A DNA stretch of 64,000 nt from the IMG/VR virus record IMGVR_UViG_3300028591_000084; one strand, given 5' to 3'. Made by a program: the position numbers and the translations under genes. Below the pieces are notes generated by a model. The model was given only the letters and a program-made list of their open reading frames with translations, had not been told where the DNA came from and did not search any database. Source of the stretch: a virus. Lineage: Duplodnaviria > Caudoviricetes. Each line of letters begins with the position of its first letter. The first letter of the stretch is position 1. This document shows positions 1-12,706 of the stretch, one piece after another.

Positions 1-21
1 TAAGAGGTAAAAAAAGATTTC

Positions 22-76
22 GGTTGGGAACTAAAATATAAGCTTAAACCTATATTCACCTTTTTAGTTCCCAACC
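22..76. repeat. 15-bp perfect inverted repeat (GGTTGGGAACTAAAA) with 25-nt spacer
   Basis: 22-36 is the reverse complement of 62-76. Confidence 0.8.
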
Positions 77-216
77 TAATTTCTTAAACTCAAGTCCTTT
101 TTTAATCTGACTTGAAACGACCTGACTTTCCCGGGAGACTTATAGTAAGTCTTGTGGAAAATCTAAGCTGAAATTCCTCGGTTATAAGGCATTGATCCTC
201 CCTGATTGGTAAAATC

Positions 217-735
217 TTAGCCTTCAATAATATCGTACCAGGGATAATTATCATCTGGATCAATGAAAAAGACGCTATACAATCTCTTATTTAGAATGTC
301 AGGATCATCGTCTTCTACTTCGAAATCATCTCTTACCTGATCCAAGTCATCAATTGCTTTTTTATCTTCATAGACCTTTCTTAGCGTAGTCCAGATATCC
401 AATCCCTTGTCACCTATTTTCTTAATGACCGAATTGACACAGAATAAGTCGCCCTCTAGAATAATATCCTCCTCATCGCTTAAAAGATCTATATCTTCAT
501 CAACGATCCACTCTCCTGAAACAGGATCAACCTTAAATACGCCGAGAATAACAGCATTAATCTCGCGCAATCCTGAAATCTCGAACAAACTAATAGCTAA
601 TTTTCCAAGATCGTCGCTTTCCAGATAATTGATTCTTAGATCTACAAATTCTTTTAATCTCTTTAAGACGTTAACATCTGTAATTTTCTTCAGCTCTTCA
701 ACAATCGGTGATACCGTCATTTTTCTTTTCTTCAT
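217..735 (-). CDS. hypothetical acidic protein
   Basis: 172-aa ORF abutting the upstream gene. Confidence 0.7.
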   Translation of the reverse strand: MKKRKMTVSPIVEELKKITDVNVLKRLKEFVDLRINYLESDDLGKLAISLFEISGLREINAVILGVFKVDPVSGEWIVDEDIDLLSDEEDIILEGDLFCVNSVIKKIGDKGLDIWTTLRKVYEDKKAIDDLDQVRDDFEVEDDDPDILNKRLYSVFFIDPDDNYPWYDIIEG

Positions 736-1289
736 TAGTATATTTTATCACTTAGAATAATATAAATATCCATTCTATCTTTATCAGACAATTTCTCATT
801 GAACCAATCCAGCTCTTCTCCGTTGTGTCTGATAATATAATATTCATCACCCTTTCTACCAAAACCTTTGCCCCATTTACCTAGATCAACATCTTTATAG
901 GATCCTGGCTTAAAATATTTGGGTAATTCTTTCATTACGTCTTTAACTAAACCAGTCATAGCTTTGTTATAAGACTCTACTATGTTTTTTAAGGTTTTGC
1001 CAGACTGCTTGCTTTCATACTCATCAACAAACATTAAGATCTTTTGAATATCGCTAATTAAAGCTTCTTCGCCAGTCCAAGGATAAGTATGGCCTTTAAG
1101 AACAGTTACGATTTCCCCTGTACCCGCTATTCTACCTATTAGATCACAGACTCCCTCAATAGTATAGGGGAAGAACTGTCCTGGCGCTATAGTCTTGCAA
1201 ATTATTCTATCAACCGTCACCAATAAGTTCTTAATTCCAATATCCTTATTCTCCTGGATATGTCTGTATTTTATACTAAAGTCCCTCAT
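735..1289 (-). CDS. hypothetical protein
   Basis: ORF 735..1358; the start MRDFSIK at 1289 reduces overlap with the upstream gene. Confidence 0.65.
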   Translation of the reverse strand: MRDFSIKYRHIQENKDIGIKNLLVTVDRIICKTIAPGQFFPYTIEGVCDLIGRIAGTGEIVTVLKGHTYPWTGEEALISDIQKILMFVDEYESKQSGKTLKNIVESYNKAMTGLVKDVMKELPKYFKPGSYKDVDLGKWGKGFGRKGDEYYIIRHNGEELDWFNEKLSDKDRMDIYIILSDKIY

Positions 1290-1743
1290 AAACTCTAATA
1301 ACGTTATTTTTAAAGTCAAATAAAACTGAACCAAAATTACAAAGAATATCAGAACCAATCATAGTACTATCTCCGATAAAGATTCTTGTTTTATCTATAA
1401 CACATCCTGCAAAATTAAGGGATGGTGCATAGACGGAATCGATTAGATGGCCTTGAGTTTGTAGAAAGTCAAACTCTACCTTAGATACCATTAACCCGCC
1501 TAAAGAATCAAAGCTAATTCCGGATTTAATTGGAATTCCGCCAACTAATATTACGACCTTATGATCCTTTGATAGTCTGGTAGAAGTCGTTGATACTTTA
1601 GTTGGGATAGTCTCTTTCTTCTCAGTTGGAATAGGTAATGGCTTATTGAATAAACCTTTATTGTCGCTATAAAAAACGAATCCTAATCCAATAATAATAA
1701 AACTAACTCCAAACGCAAATAAAAACTTACTAATTATATTCAT
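1276..1743 (-). CDS. membrane-anchored retropepsin-like (aspartic protease fold) protein, catalytic motif degenerate
   Basis: N-terminal TM segment; FDSLG in place of DTG/DSG; C-terminal MIGSDIL..F..VLFDFKNNVI resembles the retropepsin G.D.L...iD motif; promoter motif directly upstream of the ATG at 1743. Confidence 0.45.
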   Translation of the reverse strand: MNIISKFLFAFGVSFIIIGLGFVFYSDNKGLFNKPLPIPTEKKETIPTKVSTTSTRLSKDHKVVILVGGIPIKSGISFDSLGGLMVSKVEFDFLQTQGHLIDSVYAPSLNFAGCVIDKTRIFIGDSTMIGSDILCNFGSVLFDFKNNVIRVYEGL

Positions 1744-1825
1744 ATTCTCAACTATAAGGAAAAGAAAGGGGAAAGTAATCCTCTCAGACAACTTCCCCTT
1801 ATAATAACTCGGCATGAGAATAGTT

Positions 1826-1893
1826 AAAAAGGATCGGCCTTCACAGGCAAATCCTCAAAGACTCCAAGGCTAACGCTATAGCCTTTACATACT
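1826..1893 (-). ncRNA. putative small structured RNA (two hairpins, the second terminator-like)
   Basis: follows a promoter motif at 1895-1917; hairpins AAGGCTA-tagcgt-TAGCCTT and AGGATTtGCC-tgtgaa-GGCcGATCCT plus U-tract; no ORF. Confidence 0.4.
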
Positions 1894-1977
1894 TCACAAT
1901 AGTAAGGAAATAAGGGGTTTGTTTTTATTAGAATAATATTTTAGCATTCTCACCCTCCTCTTTTCCTTATTCCTGAT

Positions 1978-2871
1978 ATGAAGAAAAATAAAGAAGAATT
2001 AATTAAAATTTTTGAAGAAACCCTAGAGGTTTGTAAGATTGGTGGTTATGAAGCTGAAAATGGTAATTTTATTTCAATTTCAAATTCATGGCCTGGAACT
2101 AGGTTTTGTGCTAGTGTACCTCACTCCTCTTCTTCTAAGTGGCTAAGGGTATATAAATTTAAGTCCCCCATTGTAGATCCTACGAGAAAGATTAAAATAA
2201 CAGTCCAGAATATAGACACTTTTAATAAGGCTAAAGAATTCGGTCCTGATTGTGTTGTTTTAAATATGGCATCTTTCCGTTTTCCAGGTGGTGGTGTCAT
2301 CAATGGTGCTAGGGCTCAAGAGGAAGATTTGTTTAGGCGCTCAAATTTAGCTCAATCCTTATACTACTACTCCCCTATGAACAACATTTTTGACTATAAT
2401 GATTGGAAAAAGAAGACTTCGGGGGAGATTTTTCCTAGTGGTGAGTACCCGATTCCTATCTATGGTGGAATTTATACACCTCGTGTCACAGTTTTTAGAT
2501 CAACTGAATCATACTCTTTCTTAAACAATCCTTTTGAATGTGCTGTTATTAGTTTTCCCGCCATCAAAAATCCGGATATGAATAAGTATGGTATGATGTC
2601 AGAATTAGCGGCAACTATGATGAAAGGTAAAATTCGTGGTGTTTTAAGGTTGGCTAAATTCGGTGGTCATGAAAAGGTTGTTTTGGGTGCTTGGGGTTGT
2701 GGGGCTTATAAATGCCCAGCTACTCATGTTGCCCAGTTATTTAAAGAAGTAATAGAGGAGATAGAATTTGCAGGCGTCTTCAGTGAAATTTGTTTTGCCA
2801 TTATAGAAGATGCCAATAGTGTTAGAGTTAATGGTAGTAATATTAGAGCTTTTAAGGAGGTATTTTTATGA
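1978..2871 (+). CDS. microbial-type poly(ADP-ribose) glycohydrolase (TIGR02452/DUF2263-like macrodomain)
   Basis: VLNMAS..PGGG...GARAQEEDL.RRS and VLGAWGCGAY motifs. Confidence 0.9.
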   Translation: MKKNKEELIKIFEETLEVCKIGGYEAENGNFISISNSWPGTRFCASVPHSSSSKWLRVYKFKSPIVDPTRKIKITVQNIDTFNKAKEFGPDCVVLNMASFRFPGGGVINGARAQEEDLFRRSNLAQSLYYYSPMNNIFDYNDWKKKTSGEIFPSGEYPIPIYGGIYTPRVTVFRSTESYSFLNNPFECAVISFPAIKNPDMNKYGMMSELAATMMKGKIRGVLRLAKFGGHEKVVLGAWGCGAYKCPATHVAQLFKEVIEEIEFAGVFSEICFAIIEDANSVRVNGSNIRAFKEVFL

Positions 2872-3452
2872 TGGATAATCCGAGATATAAAGGAATTCTT
2901 ATTGATAGGAATAACGTGCCAATTCCTGGAACTGACTTTTTTGGTTGGAAGTCTAGATCCTTAGCAGTAACGGTTGTAATTTTAAGTAAAACTAGATCAG
3001 GATTGTATGAAGCCCTCGTTGAAAAGCGCGGCCCTGGTTGTCCTGATTACGTAGGATCCTGGTGTTGTCCTTGTGGTTATTTAGGCTGGGATGAAACACT
3101 CAAGGAAGCAGCAGTAAGGGAGGTGTATGAAGAAACTGGTCTAGAGCTCAAAGAAGAGGAGCTATCATTACTTGGAATTGATGATGATCCAGAAGCGAAT
3201 AGACAAAACGTTACAGTTAGGTTTTATTGTGAAATAGATGAGAGGAGAATTTTTCCAGTCATTAATCACGCCTTGTATAAGAAATCAGACAGGGGAGGTG
3301 AAGAAGATGAAGTTGACGAATTAACTCTTGTTCCATTATTTTACGTTAGAGTCAACGAGAATAGTTTTGCTTTTGGCCATAACAAAATTATTGAAGAGGC
3401 TTTTTTGAAGATAAAAAATGAAGAAACAATAAAAAAGAAGGTAGGGAATTAA
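2868..3452 (+). CDS. Nudix hydrolase (probably ADP-ribose pyrophosphatase-like)
   Basis: Nudix box GYLGWDETLKEAAVREVYEETGL; AFGH motif; ATGA overlap with PARG. Confidence 0.85.
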   Translation: MMDNPRYKGILIDRNNVPIPGTDFFGWKSRSLAVTVVILSKTRSGLYEALVEKRGPGCPDYVGSWCCPCGYLGWDETLKEAAVREVYEETGLELKEEELSLLGIDDDPEANRQNVTVRFYCEIDERRIFPVINHALYKKSDRGGEEDEVDELTLVPLFYVRVNENSFAFGHNKIIEEAFLKIKNEETIKKKVGN

Positions 3453-3473
3453 TCCTTACCTTTATTTTTTTTT
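3438..3473 (+). terminator. rho-independent terminator, identical copy at 14843
   Basis: AAGGTAGGGA-atta-ATCCTTACCTT hairpin followed by a T-tract. Confidence 0.8.
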
Positions 3474-3482
3474 ATTTAGAGT

Positions 3483-3515
3483 AAAAAAAGAGACTACTTA
3501 ATCTAGTAATCTCTT
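3483..3515 (-). terminator. rho-independent terminator of the minus-strand unit, just 3' of the orphan intron
   Basis: AGAGATTACT-agatta-AGTAGTCTCT plus T-tract on the minus strand. Confidence 0.75.
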
Positions 3516-3524
3516 GGCATGTTT

Positions 3525-3791
3525 CAGGTTATGTTATCTCGAAGGCTTTTTATCCCCCGAATCAGGCAGTTCTCATTTCCCGCCTGCTCAGCATACATAT
3601 TCATCCACTAGGGATGGCGGACACTCTTGGGTAGATTATATTCTTTATTCCTAAAGTTTCACTACCTATGCGTTACGATACTAGACCATATTACAAACCT
3701 AGTTATCTCGGTATTAGCAAATTTCACAGCCTCCACCGATATTGCCCGCTGGTTATCTTAAGTATTGCTACCTAAGACGGCAAACCAAATT
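3525..3791 (-). ncRNA. group I intron (267 nt, ORF-less) located in a 3'-UTR
   Basis: minus strand: P1 GGU|AA..UUGCC with U.G; P2 GUCUUAGGUA-GCAA-UACUUAAGAU; P3 GCGGGCA/UGUCCGC; P4 UCGGU/ACCGA; P7 GCAUA/UAUGC; P8 CAUCC/GGAUG; P9; terminal G at 3525; P10 AAAC/GUUU. Confidence 0.75.
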
Positions 3792-3796
3792 ACCTA

Positions 3797-4696
3797 CTAC
3801 TCATAAATATATTTCCCCTCCAGTAAGTTATATAGGTCAATATAATCAATCATACAATTATGAGCAGCATCCTTATCTCTACTACTAAGTCCCCATCTGC
3901 CAGAATGAGTCCCTATGTAAACCAAATCATCAAGGTTTTTCCAATCACTAATCGCCCCAGATACAGTTCTCTCCTTAGGAATTCCTTCTCGCATCTGTTT
4001 CATAACGACACAAGCTTGTCTTGGAATTCTGAGATATGTGGTTACTGAGTGTGCAATATACTCAAGTGCTGCCTCTGAACTTTCCCTATTTCCAAACGAA
4101 GGGATCAGCTCAGGTGCAGGCATAATCACATAAATTTTCTGTGGAGCAAAAGAAGCGAGCTTGTCCCAGACATCGAATCGTGGTTTCAGATCAAATACGG
4201 CTCTAGGCATTATGTCTGGCTTTCCATTACTTTCCCAAGATTCATAAAGACAATCAAGGACGTCACAAATAATAGCTCTTTTAACCTTTCTTTCTTCTTG
4301 TTCTGCTGGTGTTTCTTCTTTTTTCCAGGGTGCAGATTTTTCACTAGCAGGTTTCCAACCACTTGAAGATGATCCACTTCCCCAGCCACTGAATCCTCCA
4401 GCAGGACTCCAAGGTTTCCTATCCTCTGCTTTTTCCCAAGGAGCCTTACTTGATCCGGTCCCTGATCCGGTCCCTGATGATCCCCAGCTAAACGGGTTAG
4501 GAGTAGTTTCTGCCATTTCTTTTTTTACTAAATTTTCTTGTTGTTCCATGAGGTTGTAAAGCTTAACTTCCTCTTCATCAACCTCCTCGTCAATTAAATA
4601 ATCGTCATCATCATCGTCTTCCGTTGGATGCCCCGTATAATCAGGCGGAAGATATGATTTTCTTTCACAATCACTATTATCCATTTGTTGATTCAA
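3797..4696 (-). CDS. acidic/Gly-Ser low-complexity N-terminus fused to a degenerate HAD-IIIA (PNK 3'-phosphatase-like) domain
   Basis: IICDVLD (motif I-like); VYIGTHSGR...SSRD..AA.N resembles GDA.GR..S..D..FA.N. Confidence 0.55.
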   Translation of the reverse strand: MNQQMDNSDCERKSYLPPDYTGHPTEDDDDDDYLIDEEVDEEEVKLYNLMEQQENLVKKEMAETTPNPFSWGSSGTGSGTGSSKAPWEKAEDRKPWSPAGGFSGWGSGSSSSGWKPASEKSAPWKKEETPAEQEERKVKRAIICDVLDCLYESWESNGKPDIMPRAVFDLKPRFDVWDKLASFAPQKIYVIMPAPELIPSFGNRESSEAALEYIAHSVTTYLRIPRQACVVMKQMREGIPKERTVSGAISDWKNLDDLVYIGTHSGRWGLSSRDKDAAHNCMIDYIDLYNLLEGKYIYE

Positions 4697-6855: not shown

Positions 6856-7971
6856 ATGGAACTATTTTATGGATTAGATGACATCACATTGATACCTTCG
6901 GCAACGAATAGTGGATATGTAGATGTAGATTTTTATGTTCAGGATACGAAGGACCAGACAGGAGCAAATCCAAACTCTCTTCCTATCTTTACATCACCTA
7001 TGGAGTCGATTGTTGATGAAAAAGCAGCTAAAAGTTTTGTTGATGCTGGAATAAAACCAATCTTGCCGGTTGGTATTTCTATTGAAACAAGACTTACTTA
7101 CTGTCAGTGGATATTTTCTGCTTTCACGGTTAATGAGATTCAAAGATATTTTATTAATCAGGATAGAAGAAACACTAACAGCCAGTTTCATCTTTGTATT
7201 GATCATGGGAACGGTCATGATTCTAACCTATTAACTCTCTGTTTAAATTTAAAAAAGAGATACGGGAATCAGGTTATTATTATGGCAGGAAATGTAGCTT
7301 GCCCCGAGATTTATACAGAATACTCAAGGGCAGGGATAGATTACATGAGAGTTGGCATTGCATCGGGATCCCTAGACGACATGAGTAGGTTTGGGTTTAA
7401 CTATCCAATGGCATCACTTCTAGATTCGTTCAAAAAATTCAAGAAAACGTCAGGAGTAGGCCTAACTAATCAAGTCAAGATTATTGCTGATGGTGGTATT
7501 AACTCTTATTCAAAAATCTTAAAAGCTATAGCACTTGGAGCGGACTATGTTATGATTGGTAAAGATTTTGCCAGAGTATTAGAAGCGGCTGGTGAAATTT
7601 ATCAGAAAAATAATACTAAAATCAGAGATGCTTCTAATCTTTTAGCCATAGATCCAGCCACAATCAAAGACTTTAATCGAGATAAGGCTAAGATTAATGG
7701 TTATAGTAGATTTTATAGAAATAACACAGACCTAGAAACAAGAGCTAGACAGGCAGGATATCCAAGTGTTGAAGCTTATTTGAAAGATGATAGACCTGGC
7801 AATAAAATAGATAATATTGTTAAAATCTGGGTTAATATTGATATGACCCTGGAAGAATGGGTCGATGATTTTAAGAAAGTAGCTTATCACGGATTCCTAA
7901 TGACAGGAAGTACTGGATGGAAAGAATTTAAAAAGAACGCAAGGTATGGTGTATCCATTTCCAACCTCTGA
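6856..7971 (+). CDS. IMP dehydrogenase/GMP reductase-fold protein lacking the catalytic Cys
   Basis: LDDITLIP, PIFTSPME, ID.GNGH, IMAGNV, RVGIASGS, IIADGGI, KAIALGADYVMIG. Confidence 0.8.
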   Translation: MELFYGLDDITLIPSATNSGYVDVDFYVQDTKDQTGANPNSLPIFTSPMESIVDEKAAKSFVDAGIKPILPVGISIETRLTYCQWIFSAFTVNEIQRYFINQDRRNTNSQFHLCIDHGNGHDSNLLTLCLNLKKRYGNQVIIMAGNVACPEIYTEYSRAGIDYMRVGIASGSLDDMSRFGFNYPMASLLDSFKKFKKTSGVGLTNQVKIIADGGINSYSKILKAIALGADYVMIGKDFARVLEAAGEIYQKNNTKIRDASNLLAIDPATIKDFNRDKAKINGYSRFYRNNTDLETRARQAGYPSVEAYLKDDRPGNKIDNIVKIWVNIDMTLEEWVDDFKKVAYHGFLMTGSTGWKEFKKNARYGVSISNL

Positions 7972-8335
7972 CGACTTTACGGATTATTGGTTACTAAAAG
8001 AACATCCCTCTTCTTGGGCTGGATTGATGATTAATGCACCAATAGGCCTCGAGATTCAAGAGATCAAAAGATTAATCTGGAGAGTTTGTTTTGAGGATCT
8101 TATACCACCAGTAATAGGAACAAATAAATATATTTCGTTAAAAGAATTTTCATTTTTATACGAATTATACAAAAATGATAATCTAAAATCTGGAATTATT
8201 AACCCTCCCCAAAAGGTAATAAAATCTGTTCCAATAACTATCTTTTATTGGGACGGATCAGAGGATATAAACATGTTTGATATCCATTTAGTAGAATATA
8301 CAAGATGGATCGCGGAACAAGAGGTATTAAGATGA
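7946..8335 (+). CDS. hypothetical protein
   Basis: overlapping-operon ORF. Confidence 0.65.
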   Translation: MVYPFPTSDDFTDYWLLKEHPSSWAGLMINAPIGLEIQEIKRLIWRVCFEDLIPPVIGTNKYISLKEFSFLYELYKNDNLKSGIINPPQKVIKSVPITIFYWDGSEDINMFDIHLVEYTRWIAEQEVLR

Positions 8336-8775
8336 AAGACTATAATTTTTATTTTAAAAAGTTTTATTTTAAAAGCAATACTGAGATCCTTTTAACAGAA
8401 TGTGCCTATCAAATTTATATATTAACAAAGGATAGTTCAATAACAAAAGAAAAGTTAGTAGAAGCATTTTTAAAAATGAAATATCTCTTTGTTAAAGGAG
8501 GTAAACATGCTTCTAGATCAATTCTTTTAAAGGAAATCAGCAACGATAAGCTATTACACTATAATTATGGTATAGAGGATGCAGTGTTCTTTGCGGGAAA
8601 TCACCTATTTAGAAGTATTGATGAGCAACATTTATCCCGTCTGTTGAGTATAGATAGGGGTATAATAATTAATAAGGGTATGATAATATCAAAAGCCGTC
8701 AAAATTTGGGAGAATGATAAAATTGATGTAATTGAATATCCAACTGGTAGGACAGCCCTTTTAATAATAAGATGA
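8332..8775 (+). CDS. hypothetical protein, tandem paralog 1 of 3
   Basis: KKFYF..IYILTK..ITKEKL..ASRS..AVKIWEN shared with the next two ORFs. Confidence 0.7.
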   Translation: MKDYNFYFKKFYFKSNTEILLTECAYQIYILTKDSSITKEKLVEAFLKMKYLFVKGGKHASRSILLKEISNDKLLHYNYGIEDAVFFAGNHLFRSIDEQHLSRLLSIDRGIIINKGMIISKAVKIWENDKIDVIEYPTGRTALLIIR

Positions 8776-10023: not shown

Positions 10024-12706
10024 ATGAACATGAAAGAAATTAATTCTGTAAAAACAAATGAAGAAGTGATTGAGTTTCTTCCATTTCCAGAATGTGTTAG
10101 GCGTCGAGTAGGTGTTTATCTTGGCGGCAATGATCAAGAGGCTGTTAATACGGCTTTTAGAGAGATTGTCGATAATGCCTCAGATGAAATAGCAGCTGGA
10201 TATGGAGATACAATTTTATTAAGTACAAATTTTAATGGATTTTGTTTTGTAGCAGATAATGGTAGAGGTATTCCAATCTCAATGAGCAGAGATGTTCCTG
10301 AGAAGACGAGTGCTTATCTATCAATATCAGAACTACACACAGGATCAAAATTTACCAGTACCCAAGGAGTAGCAAGAGTTGGTCTTAATGGCTTAGGATC
10401 CTCAGCTACTTCTGCCTGTTCAACGGTCTATTGCTTATTGTCCAGGATAACTGAGGATAATTATAATAGATCTATTCCTGATGTAAAAACTGTTTGGGAA
10501 AAGGCAGGACCACGTTCTAAGAGAGATCTATATTATATTGTCATTATGGAGAAGGGATATAGAACGTATGAAAGTGCTGGTTCACTTAGAGATATTGAGA
10601 AGCTCTTGTTTGGAAAGGATAAAGAATATAAGATTCCCTCCGGCATGAGTACTCTGGTATTCTTTAAACCTGATCCTGAAATTTTTGAGTCTATTAATCC
10701 CGCCATTCCTGTTAAGAATCTCCAATATTTTATGTTAATCCAGGAGAAATTCTTTAAGAGGAAAGTTAATGTTGTAATTGATGGCGTTAATATTAAAAAT
10801 GATTTCAAGCCTTATCGATTTGAGGTAACAAAGATCATAACACCAAAGGACACAAGTATGAACAAAGAAGTTGGTATTTATATGTCCTTTGAGGCTGATC
10901 CTGAATTGAAAACTAAAGAAGTTACTGGATCAGTTAATGGTTTGGATTGTACAGGCCATCATCTTAGTATAGCAGAGTCAATTTATAAGGCGGCACTTAA
11001 AGATCAGTTCAAGATTAAACATTCTTATCTTGAACCTGGTATGAAATTAAATGTCATAATTCTGGCTAATGAGACGATCTTTGACTCTCAGAATAAAAGT
11101 AGAGTTAAGAGTATAGCCAAAGTCAAATCTACAGACTTCACTGAGGTAGTAAAGGATGTTGAGAAGATTTTTAGAAAATACTCTGACTATTGGGAGACTC
11201 ACGTTCAGAAGTTACAATATCTGGCAGATTCTATGAGAAATATCGGTGCTATTGAAAAGGCACAGAAAATCATAGATAGTGCCGGAGGTAATGGTATGTA
11301 TCGAACAAAAGGAGATATGATAGCTGGTTTTGCTGATGCTACTGCTCCTGCAAATGATAGATGGGCTTGTGAGTGCTTTATTACTGAGGGGCTTAGTCCT
11401 TGCGGCTCTTTGAAGGCTGCTAGAAAAGCTATAGATGTAAAATATAGATGTTGTGTTCCTTTACGTGGAAAAGTGCTTGATACAAGTGATAGTACTGTCG
11501 ATAAGATGATGGAAAATAAGGAATTCTTTACGATCTTTTCTCTTATGGGACTAGGTATATCAGCAAATAACGTTATCAAAGACGCTAAAGATCCGGAAGA
11601 GGCATACGAAATAATTAAAAAGAAGTCACGTTATGGCAAATTAATTATAGCTACAGATAAAACGAAAGTTTGTGTCTGAGGGTGTAGAGATACACCTAAG
11701 GAATCCTATTGTTGCGAGGAACTCTGGTTAGGTCTTAGGTACTAAAGAGTTGTAGTTAACTCTTAGTAACAATCTTAAGAATACAGACAATTCGCTTTGT
11801 TATAAGATTAGTCTATTAATTCTATAACAAGACAACGACTATCCCTCTATGGGAGTAAGACAGCAAGTCAATAATGGCTGTTTGAAAGATAGGATACCCA
11901 AACGTTTAAGGCGTGGGTAAAAATATAGTCTGATCTGTATGGAGACATGCAGGAGTTCATAAGAGAACCGGGAAGTAGTGACGACACTTCTTGAACAAAA
12001 TGGCCGATGAAGATGGGTGGCAACAGGTTGCCCAGGGATATAGAAATATATTTCGTAATATTGCATTAAAAGCGGGGAACTCCTGTTAGGCATAAGGTAC
12101 CAAAGTGTAACAACCCTTATGATAGGGACAATCCGCAGTAGAAATACTTCAACGACTATCTCAGTGATGAGAGTAGGGTGGCAAGTCTGTATAATGGCCA
12201 TTCGAAAGATGCAATATCTGACCACGTAATGGTGAAGATAAAAATATAGTCTGAGCACATGGGAAACTATGTGGAGAAGAAATTCTCGTACTAAGTGTAG
12301 ACGACTTAGTGTAAACAAAACTGTATCAATTCAGAAAGGTATATTATATACTATTTTGAAGTTTGCTAGATTTATGATAGATTTTGGTTTGGTTTATATT
12401 GCCGAATCTCCAATATTTGAACAAGGAGGTAAGTATTTCTATCCTAGTGATCCTAGAATACCTGGCAGTCAATTCTGTGTAGGAATGGATCCTAATAAGA
12501 AATTTAGACGTTTTAAAGGCCTTGGTGCTCTTGAACAAGAAGATGTATATTATTCGTTCTACAATGAGCAAACAAGACGTCTAATAAGAGTAACTCCAGA
12601 GTATGCTGATTATGCCATGGGCTTAGTAGAGGACATAAATAAAAGAAAGAAGTTACTGTTTGATAAAGACATATTAACTAATCCATATAATTTCACAGAT
12701 CTTTAA
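10024..12706 (+). CDS. gyrB: type IIA topoisomerase ATPase/TOPRIM subunit (GyrB/ParE-like), spliced: join(10024..11658,12003..12018,12324..12706), 677 aa
   Basis: VRRRVGVYLG, EIVDNASDE, DNGRGIP, LHTGSKF, GLNGLG, TEG.S, PLRGKVL; the splice restores IIATD-ADEDG-LSIQ; exon 3 has YIAESPIF and RFKGLG. Confidence 0.92.
11659..12002 (+). ncRNA. group I intron 1 of gyrB (344 nt, ORF-less, IA-like)
   Basis: P1 CAGAU/GUCUG with U.G and GAAA loop; P3 AUCCUAUU/GAUAGGAU; P7 GACUA (11837-41)/UAGUC (11926-30) within AAAAUAUAGUCUGA; ends in G. Confidence 0.9.
12003..12018 (+). other. 16-nt micro-exon GCC GAT GAA GAT GGG T (A-D-E-D-G)
   Basis: supplies the missing part of the TOPRIM DxDxDG motif and restores frame; ends in U as group I splicing requires. 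Confidence 0.88.
12019..12323 (+). ncRNA. group I intron 2 of gyrB (305 nt, ORF-less, IA-like)
   Basis: P1 UGGGU/GCCCA; P3 AUAUUGCAUU/GAUGCAAUAU; GCGGGGAAC/AAUCCGCAG (P/Q); P7 GACUA (12154-58)/UAGUC (12247-51); ends in G. Confidence 0.9.

Follow-up and report, generated by a model that had tools for sequence, protein, structure and literature searches.

When a group I intron splits a gene, the host's need for the gene product maintains the ribozyme, and the question raised by the locus described here is how an intron of this kind can be found intact where no gene product depends on it. The locus lies in a 64,000-nt stretch of viral DNA (Duplodnaviria; Caudoviricetes; IMG/VR record IMGVR_UViG_3300028591_000084), called the window below, whose source is a phage of about 312 kb known only from metagenome assemblies. 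The intron is an ORF-less element of the IA2 type that spans positions 3791-3525 of the minus strand (267 nt), exactly as placed by a preliminary description of the sequence. Its 5' exon is the mRNA of the gene at 3797..4696 (minus strand), a 299-aa ORF (295 aa in public assemblies) that is the last of a three-gene operon. The stop codon of this gene, TAG at 3799-3797, is directly followed by a second TAG at 3796-3794, and the non-coding end of the exon reads UAGGU (3792..3796), with the 5' splice site after U3792, 5 nt past the stop codon. The final intron base is the terminal G (omega-G) at 3525, and the 3' exon starts with AAAC (3521..3524). The intrinsic terminator of the operon (3481..3515, minus strand; an 11-bp stem at 3515-3488 followed by a U-run) lies wholly in this 3' exon, its hairpin beginning 9 nt after the intron end; the preliminary description had put the two distances at 5 and about 10 nt. 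Assembled contigs without the intron, considered below, confirm the end of the 5' exon and agree with G3525 as the end point of the missing piece.

On the other side of the terminator lies a convergent Nudix gene (2868..3452, plus strand) with its own terminator at 3437-3463, and here the match of gene order to relatives breaks. The Nudix gene forms a translationally overlapping pair with a gene for a microbial-type PARG (together 1978-3452, plus strand), convergent on the intron, and two Macro-domain genes lie a few kb to the left (L140:4136-5370), the whole making up an ADP-ribose-processing cluster. An IMPDH/GMP-reductase-like gene (6856-7971, plus strand) is divergent from the intron-bearing operon.

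The structure was drawn by hand and comprises P1, P2, P3, P4, P5, P6/P6a, P7, P7.1, P7.2, P8, P9 and P9.1. In the window copy all 68 of the 68 pairs are standard, and nearly all of them are also standard in two of the three homologues aligned with it. The P1 hairpin (GGUAA/UUGCC, 3794-3790 with 3783-3779) holds the U.G wobble of the 5' splice site as U3792.G3781. The internal guide sequence GUUUGCC (3785-3779) pairs at seven of seven bases with the joined exons GGU^AAAC (^ marks the splice junction), its GUUU forming P10 with the start of the 3' exon, which bears out the earlier reading that both P1 and P10 are kept. P2 is a 10-bp hairpin with a GCAA loop (3755..3778), and P3 (3749-3743 with 3623-3617) encloses P4-P5-P6/P6a (3739-3677), the 5' strand of P7 (3671-3667) and P7.1-P7.2 (3666-3630; five of five pairs in each of the two). 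P8 (3616-3602) is followed by J8/7 and by the 3' strand of P7, UAUGC (3595-3591), which makes a pseudoknot with P3, while P9 (3586-3563) and P9.1 (3560-3539), the latter with the conserved loop AUAAAAAG, complete the element.

This drawing is supported by covariation in homologous loci, a check that the preliminary description had proposed. Across 97 distinct relatives, in an alignment fitted to a covariance model, 94.5% of the cells hold standard pairs, as against 31-42.5% after a displacement of the 3' partners by 1-3 columns, and two-sided changes occur in 53 of 58 pairs and in every helix, including each of P4, P5 and P6/P6a, P7.1 and P7.2, P9 and P9.1, as well as P3 and the pseudoknotted P7. 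P7 is 100% paired across the relatives, with covariation at two of its pairs. The pairs are likewise retained in a plain MAFFT alignment of 30 members (P3, 205/210; P6a, 168/171; P7.1, 148/150; P9.1, 203/205), and, as read by eye, the P1 triplets before the splice site and before P2 change together in the relatives (GGU/GCC, GCU/GGC, GAU/GUC, CGU/GCG). At the family positions that are at least 90% conserved, the window copy retains 56 of 59, and two of its three departures make up one compensatory P9 pair. The P7 sequence GCAUA/UAUGC had been correctly read and described as a variant; it is in fact the family norm, present in 86 of 93 sequences, the form found in phage Twort being present in 7. 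By minimum free energy alone, the folding is mildly better than that of shuffled sequences (z = -2.0). With a P3-P8 and P4-P6 core, the P3/P7 pseudoknot, P1 and P10 all present, the element is a group I intron, and with P7.1-P7.2 between P7 and P3', plus P9.1, it is of subgroup IA2. The full core from P1 to P9 with a terminal G, as first proposed, is thus upheld, and it far exceeds what chance would give. A promoter-like match inside the intron (3662-3635) falls on a structural motif conserved in the family and was taken as coincidence. With regard to composite elements, the 267 nt hold no listed ORF of at least 50 aa and no transposase gene, as an IStron would; a riboswitch-controlled ribozyme is equally disfavoured, as Rfam finds no riboswitch family anywhere in the window and the intron begins just 5 nt past the stop codon.

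The place of this element among known introns is not apparent from standard annotation. Rfam gives zero group I matches in the window, both at the gathering score and at E-values up to 10. It also misses (E up to 0.01) homologues that split helicase, DNA polymerase and tape-measure genes, among them a region of phiCD211 whose own record says Intron_gpI, and its silence is therefore uninformative for the branch to which the window intron belongs. By blastn against phage genomes, the core matches Bacillus phage PJN02, Alicyclobacillus phage MMB025 and Clostridioides difficile phages such as phiCD211, where it lies in a RecD-like helicase gene, a DNA polymerase gene and a tape-measure gene, respectively; together with the window copy these make four sequences that can be aligned over the whole element. 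A pattern scan of IMG/VR added more than 113 further loci. One covariance model (R1) gives the window 240.6 bits and finds 120 matches in 97 sources. A second (R2), trained on 30 phage introns that did not include the window copy, matches the window end to end at 192.6 bits (E 6e-54); both models begin after P2. R2 also matches, at full length, a Twort orf142 intron region (L139:17016-17239; 44.8 bits, E 4.5e-11), which we take to be a self-splicing IA2 intron. The preliminary description had named the lack of a hit by a group I covariance model as grounds for rejecting the intron. Rfam indeed returns no hit, while the models built from the family match strongly. The nearest relatives share about 70% of aligned positions with the window intron.

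The relatives also show how the exon ends are used. In PJN02 the helicase reading frame runs up to ...GGGGMG, where it ends at GGT, and resumes past the terminal G as KSWLQRILLELIDKKNLTTALLAPTGKA; the exons join as ...GGGGMG^KSWLQR..., by which Walker A is restored, with GGU^AAA and the GCC pairing as in the window. At least 12 members of the family interrupt Walker A at the boundary of its Gly and Lys codons (GGT^AAA, then ACN or TCN), and the motif appears to be a target of the family across a wide range of NTPase genes. PJN02 and MMB025 have homing-endonuclease genes immediately before the core; in PJN02 (L001:1622-2765) the P1 loop accommodates them, after the 5' splice site and ahead of the guide sequence, and the endonuclease ORF ends inside P2. 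Arrangements with more than one intron were also seen: in phiCD211 (L002:2500-3100) a family intron is followed by a micro-exon of about 33 nt (EKVGTALKTIG) and a second stretch annotated Intron_gpI, and another locus (L043:2330-2826) holds two family copies in tandem, about 40 nt apart. In the window itself, the ORF of the topoisomerase II large subunit (10024-11679) stops inside the Toprim motif (...IIATD), and in the stretch just downstream (11680-12330, plus strand) the intron models match two group I-like cores at 11885-11975 and 12056/12190-12328, which suggests tandem introns.

What sets the window copy apart is its exons. The upstream 299-aa ORF had been called HAD-like; no Pfam, PHROG or PDB match was found for it, and the label is thus only tentative. 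Homologues of its protein, with 40-53% identity, are encoded in other very large phage contigs, and the three examined end in ...Y-E followed by TAA at the equivalent position, which indicates that the stop codon in the window is the natural one. A reading of TAG as an amino acid, by which the exons would be coding, was rejected, given that TAA ends the relatives' genes at the equivalent residue and that under the standard code long genes contain no interrupting stop. All three reading frames are closed within the 10 nt before the 5' splice site, and the open frame past the 3' splice site is at most 16 codons long, compared with at least 100 in most family members. A mini-frame, ATG-AGT-AGT-AGG-TAA, is identical before and after splicing. 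No reading frame spans the junction and splicing alters no ORF, as the preliminary description had stated, and the exons contain no RNA family at the Rfam gathering score. A coding, tRNA or rRNA exon is absent, and the usual context of an interrupted gene is not found here. No second 3'-UTR case was found among about 95 family members, the other members with short downstream frames that were checked being tandem introns or having short coding last exons; three that had been candidates for further UTR cases (L093, L008 and L069) proved on inspection to have short coding last exons.

The intron is not confined to one genome. In a strain that is 97% identical, represented by three separate runs, it is present at the equal UTR site, and it is thus not a very recent insertion, which weakens the recent reverse-splicing insertion offered among the early explanations. 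It differs between the strains at 5 of 267 positions, while the three genes upstream show 50 differences at 982 third codon positions (one-sided Fisher test, p 0.012); set against the adjacent gene alone (11 of 295 third positions), the deficit of changes in the intron falls short of significance (p 0.14). Stems hold three of the five changes, at 3697 and 3685 in P6a and at 3556 in P9.1, each of which turns a wobble into a Watson-Crick pair; the remaining two are in the P7.2 loop and in the 3' tail. No change affects P1, the guide sequence or P10. These patterns lend modest support to constraint on the ribozyme, or to its homogenisation between strains. Elsewhere in the same strain, downstream of the IMPDH-like gene, a block is merely 90% identical and has a small gap adjoining (L146:4-310 against 8328-8631).

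Whether the intron also splices can be approached from public assemblies, in which the exact junction GGT^AAAC, predicted earlier as 3792^3524, exists in three JGI contigs. One (L118, JGI 3300037675) is 100% identical to 6777-3790 and then resumes at 3524-3471; another (L121, JGI 3300024345), which forms one end of a contig of 24.8 kb, matches 1-3524 at 100% identity and continues with 3790-3847; the third (L120, JGI 3300024337), 98.9% identical, reads ...GAGTAGTAGGT^AAACATGCCA. The missing piece in these contigs is exactly 3525-3791, give or take a shared AA. The 24.8-kb contig is informative at a further locus. Its nrdD gene, left of the window (L144:1810-5994), is uninterrupted, encoding 1394 aa with two intein-like insertions, whereas in the 312-kb genome the nrdD ORF matches it exactly over 1255 aa and, after ...NWDKEDG, ends with LEPMSI and a stop; this break would fit an intron after ...KEDG that the 24.8-kb contig lacks. 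Both introns that fall within the range of the contig thus appear to be missing, with 100% identity everywhere else, while real strains differ by 1-3%, a combination that points to RNA. In the same direction, since the intron predates the split from the 97% strain, empty DNA sites with identical flanks would have to have arisen by precise loss more than once. In sample 3300037675, moreover, the contigs coincide with single operons (6777 to 3471, 2007 to 3454 and 1886 to 57) and omit the divergent promoter region, and this match to operon limits again suggests transcripts.

The contrary reading is that the intron-less contigs are DNA and reflect a presence/absence polymorphism, by recent gain or precise loss, so that they would attest current mobility and not splicing. 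The 24.8-kb contig (L121/L140) speaks for it, as it crosses intergenic regions and divergent and convergent gene pairs on both strands, which is more usual for DNA, and every contig ends at most about 60 nt from the site, as the coexistence of both forms in one sample would lead one to expect. To be DNA, however, this contig would have to lack two of two introns in its range with 100% identity elsewhere, among strains that differ by 1-3%; the intron is older than the 3% strain split; and the contigs of one sample follow operon limits. We therefore regard DNA as an improbable source of the joined form and RNA as a highly likely one, and the intron is very probably spliced in nature. A spliced topoisomerase protein from the window strain is not on record, and the shared contig start at 6777 has no promoter motif that is exactly repeated in the window. 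Three contigs from different data sets, about 11 kb to the left (L149, L150 and L151), all end 49-54 nt past one gene, and contig ends of the window phage cluster at the ends of gene clusters, where they could be transcript ends or repeated terminator hairpins.

Put together, the locus would work as follows. The intron would be co-transcribed with the three-gene operon, from about 6777, where contigs begin, to the terminator at 3515-3481, and the RNA would fold to the standard core with P1 presenting U3792 in its U.G wobble. Two UAG codons would halt ribosomes just ahead of P1, as in ordinary phage introns. An external guanosine would attack at U3792, G3525 would dock, P10 (AAAC/GUUU) would align the 3' exon, and the exons would join as GGU^AAAC. 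The predicted product is an mRNA with a compact 3' UTR, made up of the stop codon, 14 nt and the terminator hairpin, with the protein unchanged.

As to how the intron came to be there, we consider it probable that it is an intact, endonuclease-free IA2 intron at an ectopic 3'-UTR site that matches its guide sequence, persisting as a harmless passenger that still splices. The usual home of the family is GGU^AAA at the Gly-Lys codons of P-loop genes, and arrival here would most probably have been by ectopic insertion at the 7-nt guide match. The fourth base of the 3' exon, which would be A in a GK[ST] motif, is a C that pairs with a guide G; this G-C pair fits a choice of site by the guide, either through reverse splicing or through a nuclease acting in trans. 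A donor copy was sought in two ways: searches of IMG/VR and of the JGI/ENA contig collection gave no copy of an exact P9 pattern, and the exon-end pattern gave only chance matches in metagenome contigs.

The same exon ends can be read as what is left of a gene. An AAA ATPase gene would have been interrupted between the Walker A Gly and Lys codons, as many family members are at GGT^AAA, and the flanking ATPase sequence then deleted on both sides. Indeed, when relatives were consulted for a gene at this site, as had been advised, three of three (L117, L137 and L138) had an overlapping AAA (PF00004) gene with GxGKT directly after the homologue of the upstream gene; the window has no AAA ATPase gene and its intron sits exactly where they carry it, a position that fits the origin as a remnant better than a random ectopic insertion. 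The GGT-frame of the joined exons reads V-V-G-K-H-A-K-R-L-L-D-stop, with a faint likeness to the GKTIxAKxLC of ATPases, and the 7-mer GCCAAGA is common to the window and L117. Such a history would nevertheless call for two deletions, one ending 2-5 nt from the stop codon and the other sparing P1 and P10; the fourth 3'-exon base is the guide-matched C where GK[ST] gives A; the joined exons amount to a normal compact 3' UTR with a terminator; and the likeness of the peptide was found post hoc and is weak. We thus hold a lost ATPase gene to be an unlikely source of the intron.

Neutral persistence, in turn, is somewhat at odds with an intron divergence below that of third codon positions, and the intron may instead have been domesticated, splicing or the excised RNA being useful to the phage and hence kept. 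The equal UTR site in strains 3% apart, the lower divergence given above, the preservation of pairing by every stem change, and survival in a phage genome in which no protein needs the intron would all agree with this. The comparison, however, involves one diverged strain and loses significance against the adjacent gene; gene conversion between strains would also lower divergence; and the element is an ordinary family member with nothing added. Domestication, for example through tuning of the stability or 3' end of the operon mRNA to the GTP level, or through release of a stable structured RNA, accordingly seems doubtful to us. There is likewise only a slim chance that both processes took place, the intron having colonised the 3' UTR by reverse splicing at the 7-nt guide match and having then been selected for a benefit of splicing or of the ribozyme RNA; if true, this would exemplify, in nature, the transposition of a group I intron into non-coding sequence and its subsequent domestication. 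An ectopic passenger that still splices remains the account that we prefer.

The intron itself is a typical representative of a widespread family of phage introns, and what is unusual is its non-coding location. The locus makes it testable how introns without endonuclease genes reach new sites, and whether, when splicing is unneeded, a ribozyme is kept up by the spread of the element itself or by use to the host; for both ectopic group I mobility and the upkeep of such a ribozyme it is a clean natural test case. There is also a practical side, as standard Rfam scans miss a widespread branch of phage introns and intron surveys limited to split genes will overlook cases in UTRs.

Comparison with known systems places the window intron between familiar structure and unfamiliar location. 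The Twort orf142 introns, which reportedly self-splice and for one of which a crystal structure is reported (Landthaler & Shub 1999; Golden et al. 2005), are alike in the P3/P7 pseudoknot, P7.1-P7.2, P9.1 and the 3' tail ...UAACAUAAxUG. They differ in P7, which is GACUA/UAGUC in Twort and GCAUA/UAUGC in the window, with the C-G pair shifted by one step, and they split a coding gene, which the window intron does not. The introns of PJN02, MMB025 and phiCD211 are closer, as the whole core can be aligned and both P7 and the logic of P1 (GGU^AAA with ..UUGCC) are the same. However, these interrupt reading frames, so that splicing is needed for the protein, and those of PJN02 and MMB025 carry endonuclease genes, whereas the window copy has neither a coding exon nor an ORF.

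Short ORF-less group I introns have been described in jumbo gut ('Jug') phages, with about 18 per genome, including nrdD, and with splicing seen in metatranscriptome reads (PMC12880540). These are described as gene-interrupting, and the words 'intergenic', 'noncoding' and 'non-coding' are absent from the text of that paper, while the window intron lies in a UTR. More generally, the group I introns of bacteria and phages have been reviewed as residents of tRNA, rRNA and protein genes, with one riboswitch-coupled 5' UTR case (PMC3984707), and a non-exhaustive search of the literature yielded no account of a group I intron within the 3' UTR of a bacterial or phage gene. The 5' UTR case is the c-di-GMP-controlled group I ribozyme of Clostridioides difficile (Lee et al. 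2010, as described in PMC3984707), which likewise is a group I ribozyme located outside the translated part of a bacterial mRNA. There, a riboswitch aptamer is present and a shift of splice site builds a ribosome-binding site; the window intron, in contrast, is in a 3' UTR, has no aptamer by Rfam and leaves translation signals unaffected. For transposition of group I introns by reverse splicing, direct evidence is lacking and the support is circumstantial (PMC3984707). A parallel in position is the group II intron B.c.I1, which resides downstream of Bacillus cereus genes, in their 3' UTRs (PMC2504315). Its ribozyme class is a different one and its mobility depends on a reverse transcriptase of its own, a route not demonstrated for group I introns (PMC3984707), but it is likewise a self-splicing intron set between a stop codon and a terminator, with the protein left unchanged.
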